From: a virus
Taxonomy: Duplodnaviria > Caudoviricetes
Virus record (IMG/VR): IMGVR_UViG_3300025372_000001
Reading direction: 5' to 3' (one strand)
Length of the DNA stretch: 64,000 bases
Shown here: positions 48,700 through 63,659 of the stretch, piece by piece
Layout: each line of letters begins with the position of its first letter
Numbering within the stretch: position 1 is the first letter of the stretch
Program-made: the position numbers and the translations under genes
Notes under the pieces: model-generated
What the model was told of the DNA's origin: nothing
Seen by the model: only the letters and a program-made list of their open reading frames with translations
The model's database searches: none

Positions 48700-48775
48700 G
48701 TCCCTATAGTGTAACGGATTAGCACCTACGGATTCTACCCGTATAGAAAAAGTTCAAATCTTTTTAGGGATACCA
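48700..48775 (+). tRNA. tRNA-Arg(TCT)
   Basis: GTCCCTA/TAGGGAT acceptor, GTG.AACGGATT.GCAC D-arm, TACGG-ATTCTAC-CCGTA anticodon arm, AAAAG-TTCAAAT-CTTTT T-arm, encoded ACCA. Confidence 0.85.
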
Positions 48776-61994: not shown

Positions 61995-62033
61995 TAGTTG
62001 ACAAAGTAAATTAAATATAGTAAAATGAAAAAT

Positions 62034-62120
62034 GGCGATGTGCTGAAACTGGTAAACAGGAAAGTTTTAAAAACTTTTGCAAGAAATTGCTTGTCGATTC
62101 GATTTCGACCATCGCCACCA
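62034..62120 (+). tRNA. tRNA-Leu(TAA)
   Basis: GGCGATG/CATCGCC acceptor, D-loop TGGTAAA, AAAGT-TTTAAAA-ACTTT, long variable arm, GTCGA-TTCGATT-TCGAC, ACCA; promoter TTGACA at 61998. Confidence 0.88.
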
Positions 62121-62540: not shown

Positions 62541-62951
62541 ATGGAAATACCAAGAATACTTTTAGTAGATGATGATTTCAATTCAAAGAATTATGTGGAA
62601 TCATTAGAAGAACATGGATTTTTTGTTGAACATGCTACAACCCCAGACATTGCATTGCAGTTGTCGACTAACAATGGGCGATATACATTAGTTATTATGG
62701 AATGTATTATGTTGCCAGGGGAAACATTAGCTAACGAATCAGTAGATGATGGAATGGAAACGGGTATAGTTTTATTTGATAAAATAAAAGAAATTGCTCC
62801 TATGACTCCTTGTTGGTTTTTGACTAATGCACGTTCTGTTGATCTTATTATGAAAATGGTGGATTTAGTTGGAATAGAAAGAGTTTATCGCAAATATAGT
62901 ACTCTTCCACGAAGAATCATTCGAGAAATTCAAGAGACTTTTTCCAGATAA
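62541..62951 (+). CDS. single-domain response regulator receiver-like protein, atypical
   Basis: ILLVDDD, VE.ATT...AL, LVIMECIMLPG, G..L...I, FLTN, K; phospho-acceptor Asp absent. Confidence 0.8.
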   Translation: MEIPRILLVDDDFNSKNYVESLEEHGFFVEHATTPDIALQLSTNNGRYTLVIMECIMLPGETLANESVDDGMETGIVLFDKIKEIAPMTPCWFLTNARSVDLIMKMVDLVGIERVYRKYSTLPRRIIREIQETFSR

Positions 62952-63093: not shown

Positions 63094-63312
63094 ATGACAA
63101 ATATCTATACAGTTCAAACAAGAAGCGAAGAAACTGGATTGAATTTTTATTCATCTTCAAATCTTGAATCCGCTCTGGTAGAAGCAAAACTTGCAGCCGA
63201 AAAAGATTCTTCTATTTGGAAAATTTCTTACATTGATGAAACGGGTAACAGTGTACGATTGGTGAAGAATGAAGAAAACGAATGGGAAAATCAACCCTTG
63301 ACTCTTTCGTAA
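63094..63312 (+). CDS. hypothetical protein
   Basis: ORF track 72 aa; promoter TTGACG(62955)-17-TAAAGT. Confidence 0.65.
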   Translation: MTNIYTVQTRSEETGLNFYSSSNLESALVEAKLAAEKDSSIWKISYIDETGNSVRLVKNEENEWENQPLTLS

Positions 63313-63369
63313 AAGATGGTAAAGTAAGGACGTTATAGAGAACTTGATTCTCAAAATTTATTAATTAAT

Positions 63370-63459
63370 GGTTGGTGGGGGCTGCCCGGCGGTAGCGGCG
63401 GACTCATAATCCGTGTTGTGTTTAAACACCTTCAGGATCGACACCTGCACCAACTACCA
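63370..63459 (+). tRNA. non-canonical tRNA(CAT) with 8/4 acceptor-T branch, Sec-like D-arm and long variable arm
   Basis: GGTTGGTG/CACCAACT (8 bp), GCTGCC-CGGC-GGTAGC, GCGGA-CTCATAA-TCCGT, V-arm GTGTT/AACAC, CAGG-ATCGACA-CCTG, A-CCA. Confidence 0.85.
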
Positions 63460-63659
63460 TTTTCACTTCTTGAATAAACCGCTTATACTACTTCACAATG
63501 AAAACCGTTAAACAACTTATCGAATGTGGAGATTGGGAAGAATTTTATCTAACTGATAAAAAAGAAAAATTACCCAAAACACCTGAAAACGAGAAAACCT
63601 TTTTAGAATGTAAAGTTAAATGGAGTAGTGTTGCACAAAAAATTGAGAAATAATCTCTT

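Follow-up and report, generated by a model that had tools for sequence, protein, structure and literature searches.

A phage tRNA gene with a CAU anticodon that combines a tRNA-Ile2-type anticodon arm with a tRNA-Sec-like 8/4 body

What can be decoded by a transfer RNA (tRNA) whose anticodon arm belongs to one cellular class and whose body has the shape of another? The question is raised by a 90-nucleotide (nt) tRNA gene with the anticodon CAU, located on the plus strand at positions 63370-63459 of a 64,000-nt stretch of Caudoviricetes DNA (IMG/VR record IMGVR_UViG_3300025372_000001), the whole of which is hereafter called the window. Judged by its sequence, the gene is a chimera in design, in which the anticodon arm of tRNA-Ile2 is carried by a body shaped like tRNA-Sec and the so-called allo-tRNAs. 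The favoured reading, to which a probability of roughly 0.4 is given, is an AUA-reading, Ile2-like elongator tRNA on an allo-tRNA-like body.

tRNAs with an 8/4 branch are already known, phages included, however their natural roles are largely unknown and most of those studied look like serine (Ser) acceptors. In the present gene the 8/4 scaffold is joined to an arm of defined cellular meaning, namely lysidine formation and then isoleucine (Ile) at AUA. It may therefore be asked how a CAU tRNA gets its identity, whether a body of the Sec type is a substrate for TilS, IleRS or MetRS, and why phages build tRNAs unlike those of their hosts. If the molecule is charged simply with methionine (Met) or Ile, it would be an unusual body serving as an ordinary helper tRNA; an 8/4 scaffold with a sense-codon arm is also of potential use in genetic-code engineering.

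The gene and its 8/4 fold

The acceptor stem consists of 8 base pairs (bp), with its 5' strand at 63370-63377 and its 3' strand at 63448-63455, as given by ARAGORN at a lowered threshold (-ps), by the fold ensemble and by a list of all pairs; G1.U72 is the topmost pair and G63377-C63448 the eighth and lowest. It is followed by a GGG connector to the D stem (63378-63380; 3 nt, one more than usual) and by a tRNA-Sec-like D arm (63381-63396; Rfam alignment to tRNA-Sec, pair list), in which a 6-bp stem with one G.U pair (63381-63386 and 63391-63396) closes a CGGC tetraloop. G26 separates this arm from the anticodon arm GCGGA-CUCAUAA-UCCGU (63398-63414, anticodon 63405-63407), which has the pair G27.U43 and a stem of 5 bp; a candidate sixth pair in the manner of tRNA-Sec would be G63397.G63415. 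In the variable region of 18 nt (63415-63432; sequence, ARAGORN -ps, pair list) the helix has just 4 bp (GTGT/ACAC, 63418-63421 and 63426-63429), with the loop TTAA and three unpaired nucleotides on either side. The T arm (63433-63447; sequence, ARAGORN -ps) has a 4-bp stem, CAGG/CCTG (63433-63436 and 63444-63447), and the loop ATCGACA with A54, C59 and A60, and the gene ends with the discriminator A73 at 63456 and an encoded CCA at 63457-63459. All 27 of the 27 listed pairs are standard (16 G-C, 8 A-U and 3 G.U), with U3-A70, U4-A69 and G5-C68 at acceptor positions 3-5, and the general features of a cloverleaf are present: four arms, a 7-nt anticodon loop, U33, A37, G18-G19, U55-C56, A73 and CCA, with A54 in place of T54.

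A preliminary description of this locus had proposed a tRNA with a CAU anticodon on an 8/4 scaffold, and every feature which it listed was found in place. The 8-bp acceptor with G1·U72 and the 4-bp T stem are borne out by the pair list, by the ARAGORN drawing and by the probability of 0.997 which the eighth pair, G63377-C63448, reaches in the ensemble; the 6-bp D stem with its CGGC loop, the T loop ATCGACA, the discriminator A and the encoded CCA can all be read in the sequence. The long variable arm holds as an 18-nt region with a short helix, the connector is refined from two nucleotides to three, and the anticodon stem to 5 bp. The free energy of the 8/4 cloverleaf is -31.1 kcal/mol against -32.0 for the minimum free energy structure. 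An alternative with a 7-bp acceptor reaches -27.9 kcal/mol, which is 3.2 worse than the 8/4 form, and its T stem would need an unpaired U.C. As homologues and sequence variants were not found, the 8/4 fold rests on a single sequence and its thermodynamics.

The ARAGORN check proposed in the preliminary description succeeded in part: at default settings the gene was not called in the 64-kb window, whereas with -ps exactly three tRNAs were reported there, the CAU gene among them and drawn as 8/4. With 40 dinucleotide-shuffled versions of the window the same lowered threshold returned nothing, and a search of the window with a pattern of the architecture gave one match against 0.00 expected. At the gathering thresholds of Rfam the gene was unmatched; within the Rfam tRNA clan its best family is tRNA-Sec (RF01852), with 34.5 bits where the gathering score is 47. 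The ordinary class II tRNA-Leu of the same phage goes to the general tRNA model (54.9 bits), thus the resemblance to tRNA-Sec is specific to the CAU gene; together with the 8/4 branch, the long D stem with its tetraloop and the long variable region it upholds the tRNA-Sec-like scaffold of the earlier account. The GC content is 57.8% in the gene and 32% in its flanks, and no open reading frame (ORF) of at least 40 amino acids (aa) overlaps it. Identical copies of the sequence are present in five contigs, from several metagenome samples, and in three sequencing runs, and since all are identical they offer no variants for testing the pairing. The complete pairing, the GC island, the shuffle-proof detection and the several copies confirm that 63370-63459 is a real, selected RNA gene.

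Relatives of the gene were sought in several collections. In viral contigs, exact and degenerate DNA patterns (the arm with its flanks, the arm plus the T loop, the architecture and the D arm) yielded no homologue, and a T-arm pattern found 16 stretches in which the tRNAs were unrelated and had only the T loop in common. In metagenome contigs the architecture pattern gave 46 hits, close to the chance estimate, and the real tRNAs among them were initiator-like and not relatives. With blastn, neither isolated phages nor E. coli genomes gave a homologue. When 83 fetched loci were scanned with a covariance model of the gene, the identical copy in L121 reached 119.9 bits and the next best match 36 bits, which is generic tRNA similarity. 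Searches with ORFs gave no relatives of a 136-aa ORF in viral contigs, only itself for the 51-aa ORF, and seven hits in an exhaustive search for a 134-aa ORF, with no such tRNA on their contigs. The gene might also be a relic devoid of function, or a chimera that arose recently by chance and serves no purpose. This would fit a singleton which has a homologue in no collection searched, which falls below the ARAGORN default and the Rfam gathering thresholds, and which is in no RNA run. Nevertheless such an origin is given only a small probability, considering the 27/27 standard pairs, the GC content of 58% against 32% for the genome, the lack of any trace of decay, the intact CCA, the conserved tertiary nucleotides and an intergenic space of its own between promoter-like sites.

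The anticodon arm, the syntenic slot and the codon AUA

The preliminary description had likened the anticodon arm to that of selC. This comparison could not be kept, as the arm is an ordinary tRNA-Ile2 arm and not selC-like. Its exact 17-mer occurs in at least 120 stretches of bacterial genomes (Actinomycetota, Betaproteobacteria, Acidobacteriota, Bacteroidia and others), and the comparison set is formed by the 115 well-folded tRNAs with the identical 17-nt arm among the matches listed. All these carriers are class I tRNAs of 72-76 nt to the discriminator with short variable loops; A73 is found in 115 of 115 and G3-C70 in 100. None is long-armed, in agreement with the earlier statement that bacterial Met and Ile2 tRNAs have no long variable arm. 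As to viruses, the central 15 nt of the arm is found in at least 119 stretches, mostly in typical Ile2-looking tRNAs, and the exact 17-nt arm in 31 distinct phage tRNAs of co-fetched loci, 21 of which have both C4-G69 and C5-G68.

G3 and C70 are marks of tRNA-Ile(CAT) as opposed to Met and fMet tRNAs (Silva 2006, PMC1635315). The states found in the E. coli tRNA-Ile2 are G27.U43 and G30-C40, as against C27-G43 and C30-G40 in its tRNA-Met, and the Met-specific acetylase that forms N4-acetylcytidine (ac4C) is blocked by G27.U43 (PMC2500205). The phage gene has the Ile2-type features CAU, G27.U43, G30-C40 and A73.

Further evidence comes from the place of the gene, which lies in a 185-nt gap between a 72-aa ORF (63094-63312) and a 51-aa ORF (63498-63653). 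By means of the 72-aa ORF, which has only two relatives, a related phage lineage was found, and in it eight flanking ORFs are 63-79% identical and keep their order. Between the counterparts of these two ORFs (72/79 aa and 51/50 aa) the related phage has an ordinary 75-nt tRNA(CAU) of the Ile2 type, with G3-C70 and C4-G69, which lies within a 1-kb insert. The two slot tRNAs have nothing in common beyond the anticodon loop. The slot is thus kept and filled by non-homologous genes in the two phages, which speaks for decoding of the Ile2 type, and with the ordinary version in the related phage the gene is a clean natural test case for the questions raised above. The insert (L125:4241-5276) may be a mobile element. 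It begins with about 350 nt with no ORF or Rfam match, followed by the tRNA and by a 194-aa ORF on the opposite strand, which overlaps the 3' end of the tRNA and has no Pfam match. The related phage also has a 76-nt class I tRNA with the anticodon UAA (L125:3807-3882), where the window has a class II tRNA-Leu(UAA) at 62034-62120; the positions of the two differ slightly, in DNA which is syntenic apart from this. Thus, as with the CAU tRNA, the body of the UAA tRNA is swapped between these close relatives.

An extra arm on a tRNA of the AUA box is not confined to this gene. Among the UAU tRNAs of co-fetched phage loci 8 of 12 are 90-94 nt in length and have a long extra arm, often with CAGATAA; they lie in the viral or metagenome contigs L025, L041, L109, L111, L118, L140, L191 and L192. 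All eight have A73-CCA, five have G27.U43, several have C4-G69/C5-G68, and the one in L192 has both the T loop ATCGACA and G1.U72. No paper on these long phage UAU tRNAs was found other than that of Mukai 2017 (PMC5389517), with its allo-tRNA(UAU) group. Two IMG/VR loci (L055:3886-3973 and L084:4200-4287) hold 88-nt tRNAs with CAU, a 7/5 branch, a GGGCC-type acceptor and a 14-nt extra arm. Their arms have the Ile2-type CGGA/UCCG core and loop with G-C and C-G as the 27-43 pairs, and one has C4-G69 and C5-G68; in appearance they are tRNA-Ile2 in a class II form. That AUA-box tRNAs with a long arm are met repeatedly in phages is counted in favour of Ile2-like decoding.

If the gene acts as an Ile2-like elongator, it would be transcribed early from a sigma-70-like promoter, the transcript would be trimmed by RNase P, C34 would be turned into lysidine by the TilS of the host, and the lysidinylated tRNA would be charged by IleRS and read AUA. 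An AUA reader would then join the other elongator tRNAs of the phage, which read the A-ending codons AGA, UUA and GAA. It is the Ile2 arm, the synteny, the absent C3-G70 and this set of tRNAs for A-ending codons that lead to the Ile reading. Helper tRNAs that phages encode for rare codons ending in A are familiar, and phage T4 has a tRNA-Ile whose gene anticodon is CAU and which reads AUA. The 12-bp acceptor branch (8+4) has the length accepted by EF-Tu.

Several observations weigh against this assignment. The acceptor marks of Ile2 (G3/A3 or C70/T70, frequently C4-G69 and C5-G68) are absent from the phage gene; among the matches listed, T3-A70 occurs in only 1 of the 115 bacterial carriers and C5-G68 in nearly all of them. 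For the E. coli TilS, C4-G69/C5-G68 are the dominant determinants and U4-A69 is a negative determinant (PMC12514573, PMC2500205). The missing determinants weaken the Ile reading, however in about 30% of the TilS enzymes the domain for acceptor-stem recognition is missing (PMC12514573). Neither a long extra arm nor a Sec-like D arm was seen in any cellular Ile2 examined, and with them D-arm elements which are used by IleRS are removed. The unmodified CAU anticodon is by itself a sufficient determinant for MetRS (PMC9976931). Lastly, no homologue that might show covariation was found in the collections searched, and no match to the tRNA stretch was obtained in any of the RNA runs searched.

The same facts bring in the reading which comes next after the Ile2-like one, i.e. 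an elongator tRNA-Met in which C34 is not lysidinylated and MetRS charges the tRNA through CAU and A73, so that internal AUG codons are read. It is a possible though doubtful identity. A foreign tRNA body that is given CAU alone is charged by the E. coli MetRS as efficiently as the enzyme's own tRNA (PMC9976931), and tRNA-Ile2, when unmodified, behaves as tRNA-Met (PMC1635315). Moreover, the TilS determinants are absent from the acceptor stem, U4-A69 is the state of the E. coli tRNA-Met (PMC2500205), and A73 is compatible with Met. On the other hand, the gene has no C3-G70, which is usual in Met and fMet tRNAs (PMC1635315), and has G27.U43 and G30-C40 instead of the tRNA-Met states (PMC2500205). 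Its arm is identical to cellular Ile2 arms and the syntenic tRNA of the related phage is of the Ile2 type. In addition, nucleotides beyond the anticodon lead MetRS orthologues to disfavour tRNA-Ile2 by a factor of 50 to 600 (PMC12514573).

Initiation, mischarging and roles outside translation

The T loop with A54 and A60, noticed in the preliminary description as a hallmark of eukaryotic initiators, is indeed present, but its value as an initiator signature was lost in a survey of the fetched loci, which covered 600 distinct phage tRNAs. A54 was found in 21 of them (3.5%; 3 of the 21 come from loci selected by the same T arm), with anticodons for Asp, Glu, Val, Phe, Pro, Asn, Thr, Lys, Gln, His and Ile, and 17 of these 21, i.e. 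17/600, also have A60, across many specificities, namely Asp, Glu, Val, Phe, Pro, Thr, Lys, Gln and His. The exact loop ATCGACA is shared by phage tRNA-Pro, tRNA-His and tRNA-Gln and by a 94-nt tRNA(UAU). A54/A60 is therefore a T-loop variant that recurs among the elongators of phages. The commonest A54/A60 loop in phage tRNAs is ATCGTTA, where A54/U58 has the appearance of the usual T54/A58 pair turned round.

Bacterial tRNA-fMet follows the rules R29-G30-G31/Y39-C40-Y41, A11-U24 and an unpaired 1:72 (PMC1635315). The phage tRNA was rejected as an initiator tRNA-fMet, having a paired G1.U72, A31-U39 instead of the three G-C pairs, and C-G as the second D-stem pair. The specialised initiator suggested earlier is likewise unsupported, since A54/A60 occurs in elongators, A31-U39 breaks the G-C run, G1.U72 is a wobble pair and not a mismatch, and the phage has a separate initiator-like tRNA(CAU). 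The latter, 92 nt in length, lies in the same phage genome at L181:771-862, about 27 kb before the start of the window. It has an unpaired A1xA72, a UCGGG anticodon stem with a G.U pair, a variable region of about 20 nt and the T loop UGCAACA; it was found by ARAGORN -ps and its Rfam tRNA score of 25.4 bits is under 29. A gene resembling IF-1 (PF01176) lies about 10 kb from it. Initiator-like tRNA(CAU) genes of 84-88 nt were also seen in the metagenome contigs L131, L133, L140, L149, L155, L166 and L171, within large arrays of irregular tRNAs; they carry an extra arm and have CGGT as the D loop, and their acceptors are of the CGCGGGG or UGCGGGG type, in most cases with 1:72 unpaired.

The window comes from a large phage, with PHROG matches that include ribonucleotide reductase, NAMPT and clamp loader, and corresponds to positions 149441-213440 of a near-identical public contig of 262 kb. 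Five tRNAs were read in this genome: Arg(UCU), Leu(UAA), the CAU gene, Glu(UUC) and the initiator-like tRNA(CAU). The tRNA-Arg(UCU) at window 48700-48775 also has G1.U72 and A73, which means that a G.U pair atop the acceptor is not peculiar to the CAU tRNA. The tRNA-Leu(UAA) at 62034-62120 is a normal class II molecule of 87 nt, and the tRNA-Glu(UUC) lies at L181:9909-9982. A near-consensus promoter, TTGACA-17-TAAAAT (11/12), is present within window 61998-62034 and stops 7 nt short of the first tRNA-Leu base, thus transcription may begin at or beside its mature 5' end. About 40 nt upstream of the CAU gene there is a plus-strand promoter-like site at 63298-63325, TTGACT-16-TAAAGT with TG before the -10, which is a consensus match only, and the gene occupies its own intergenic space with promoter-like sites on both sides. 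An origin by duplication of the tRNA-Leu or of the initiator-like tRNA was dismissed, as no similarity was seen in a comparison by eye. The 136-aa ORF at window 62541-62951 has a weak, sub-threshold likeness to response-regulator receiver domains (24.4 bits, cut-off 30.2) and no counterpart at the matching place in the related phage.

An extra arm and an 8-bp acceptor may also invite a different enzyme, and the preliminary description had thought of mischarging with Ser or leucine (Leu). According to this recoding view, SerRS, LeuRS or a phage enzyme would load another amino acid at AUG or AUA. There are precedents: 8/4 and 9/3 allo-tRNAs with sense anticodons put Ser at Leu codons in E. coli (PMC5389517); Ser identity lies mainly in the variable arm with the anticodon ignored (PMC9976931); and a CysRS devoid of the anticodon domain reads an 8-bp acceptor stem (PMC7609411). 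In the phage tRNA, however, only the extra arm speaks for Ser and only A73 for Leu. A73 is not the Ser discriminator (the sole Ser-inserting variant in the amber-suppressor test of allo-tRNAs in PMC5389517 had G73), and the variable helix of 4 bp has floppy flanks. LeuRS needs D-loop and 15-48 elements (PMC9976931), which a 4-nt D loop cannot supply. CAU, a strong MetRS determinant, would compete with mischarging, and proteome-wide missense would hit the genes of the phage itself, in which AUG and AUA are used 16.5 and 7.0 times per 1000 codons of the window. The Ser/Leu suggestion is thus disfavoured on account of A73 and of the D loop, and recoding as a whole is considered very unlikely.

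Another role to be weighed lies outside bulk translation. The RNA could be a non-decoding tRNA mimic, which serves as a decoy or replacement for host tRNAs under a tRNA-cleaving defence, or as a regulatory RNA. Of the natural allo-tRNA(UAU) species tested, the majority showed no activity in E. coli translation and are found near toxin-antitoxin genes (PMC5389517), and an unusual body could alter recognition by nucleases. In the immediate neighbourhood of the phage gene no defence or toxin gene was seen, though, and a complete cloverleaf with U33, A37, G18-G19, U55-C56, A73, CCA and a 12-bp branch, together with an arm that is an exact cellular decoding arm and a slot held by a normal decoding tRNA in the related phage, makes a mimic unlikely. 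A related thought is that the 8/4 body is an orthogonality device. It would create a private AUA/AUG channel, in which the arm sets the codon and the body sets the partner, or would allow escape from a host tRNA-cleaving defence. If this were true, the amino acid would differ from that of the host, or AUA/AUG decoding would survive the destruction of host tRNAs; such a function is held to be distinctly unlikely.

Comparison with known tRNA classes

Compared with tRNA-Sec (selC, RF01852), represented here by the Rfam tRNA-Sec consensus, the phage tRNA shares the 8-bp acceptor, the 6-bp D stem with a 4-nt loop containing C16, G18 and G19, C59 in the T loop, the extra arm and the T stem CAGG/CCTG. 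It differs in its branch of 12 bp instead of 13 (the T stem has 4 bp and not 5), in CAU instead of UCA, in A73 instead of G73, in the 5-bp anticodon stem and in the short variable helix. A tRNA-Sec proper is ruled out by the 12-bp branch, CAU and A73.

With tRNA-Ile2 (CAT gene anticodon, lysidine 34; E. coli ileX and phage T4 tRNA-Ile) the likeness comprises the 17-nt arm, A73 and the syntenic slot. There is no G3-C70, C4-G69 or C5-G68, the D arm is unrelated, and where tRNA-Ile2 is class I and 7/5 the phage tRNA has a class II-like 8/4 body. Of the features of elongator tRNA-Met, CAU and A73 are present, while C3-G70 and C27-G43 are absent. The long-armed CAU and UAU tRNAs of other phages resemble the gene in their AUA-box anticodons, extra arm, A73 and CCA, but are all 7/5 and have D arms that are ordinary or different; against the covariance model of the phage gene they score 26-33 bits (self 120), which is generic tRNA similarity only.

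The closest resemblance in overall shape is to the allo-tRNAs of Mukai et al. 2017 (PMC5389517), with which the gene shares a 12-bp branch arranged as 8/4, a long variable arm and a Sec-like D arm. The same paper reports 8/4 tRNA-Ser and tRNA-His of phages, as well as 8/4 tRNAs in phage tRNA clusters, and its main text makes no mention of an 8/4 tRNA with CAU. Most of the allo-tRNAs presented there have G73 or U73, the basis of their Ser identity, and an anticodon stem longer than the canonical one, whereas the phage tRNA has A73 and a stem of 5 bp. It further departs from them in its CAU on an Ile2-type arm, in its A54/A60 T loop and in its 3-nt connector.

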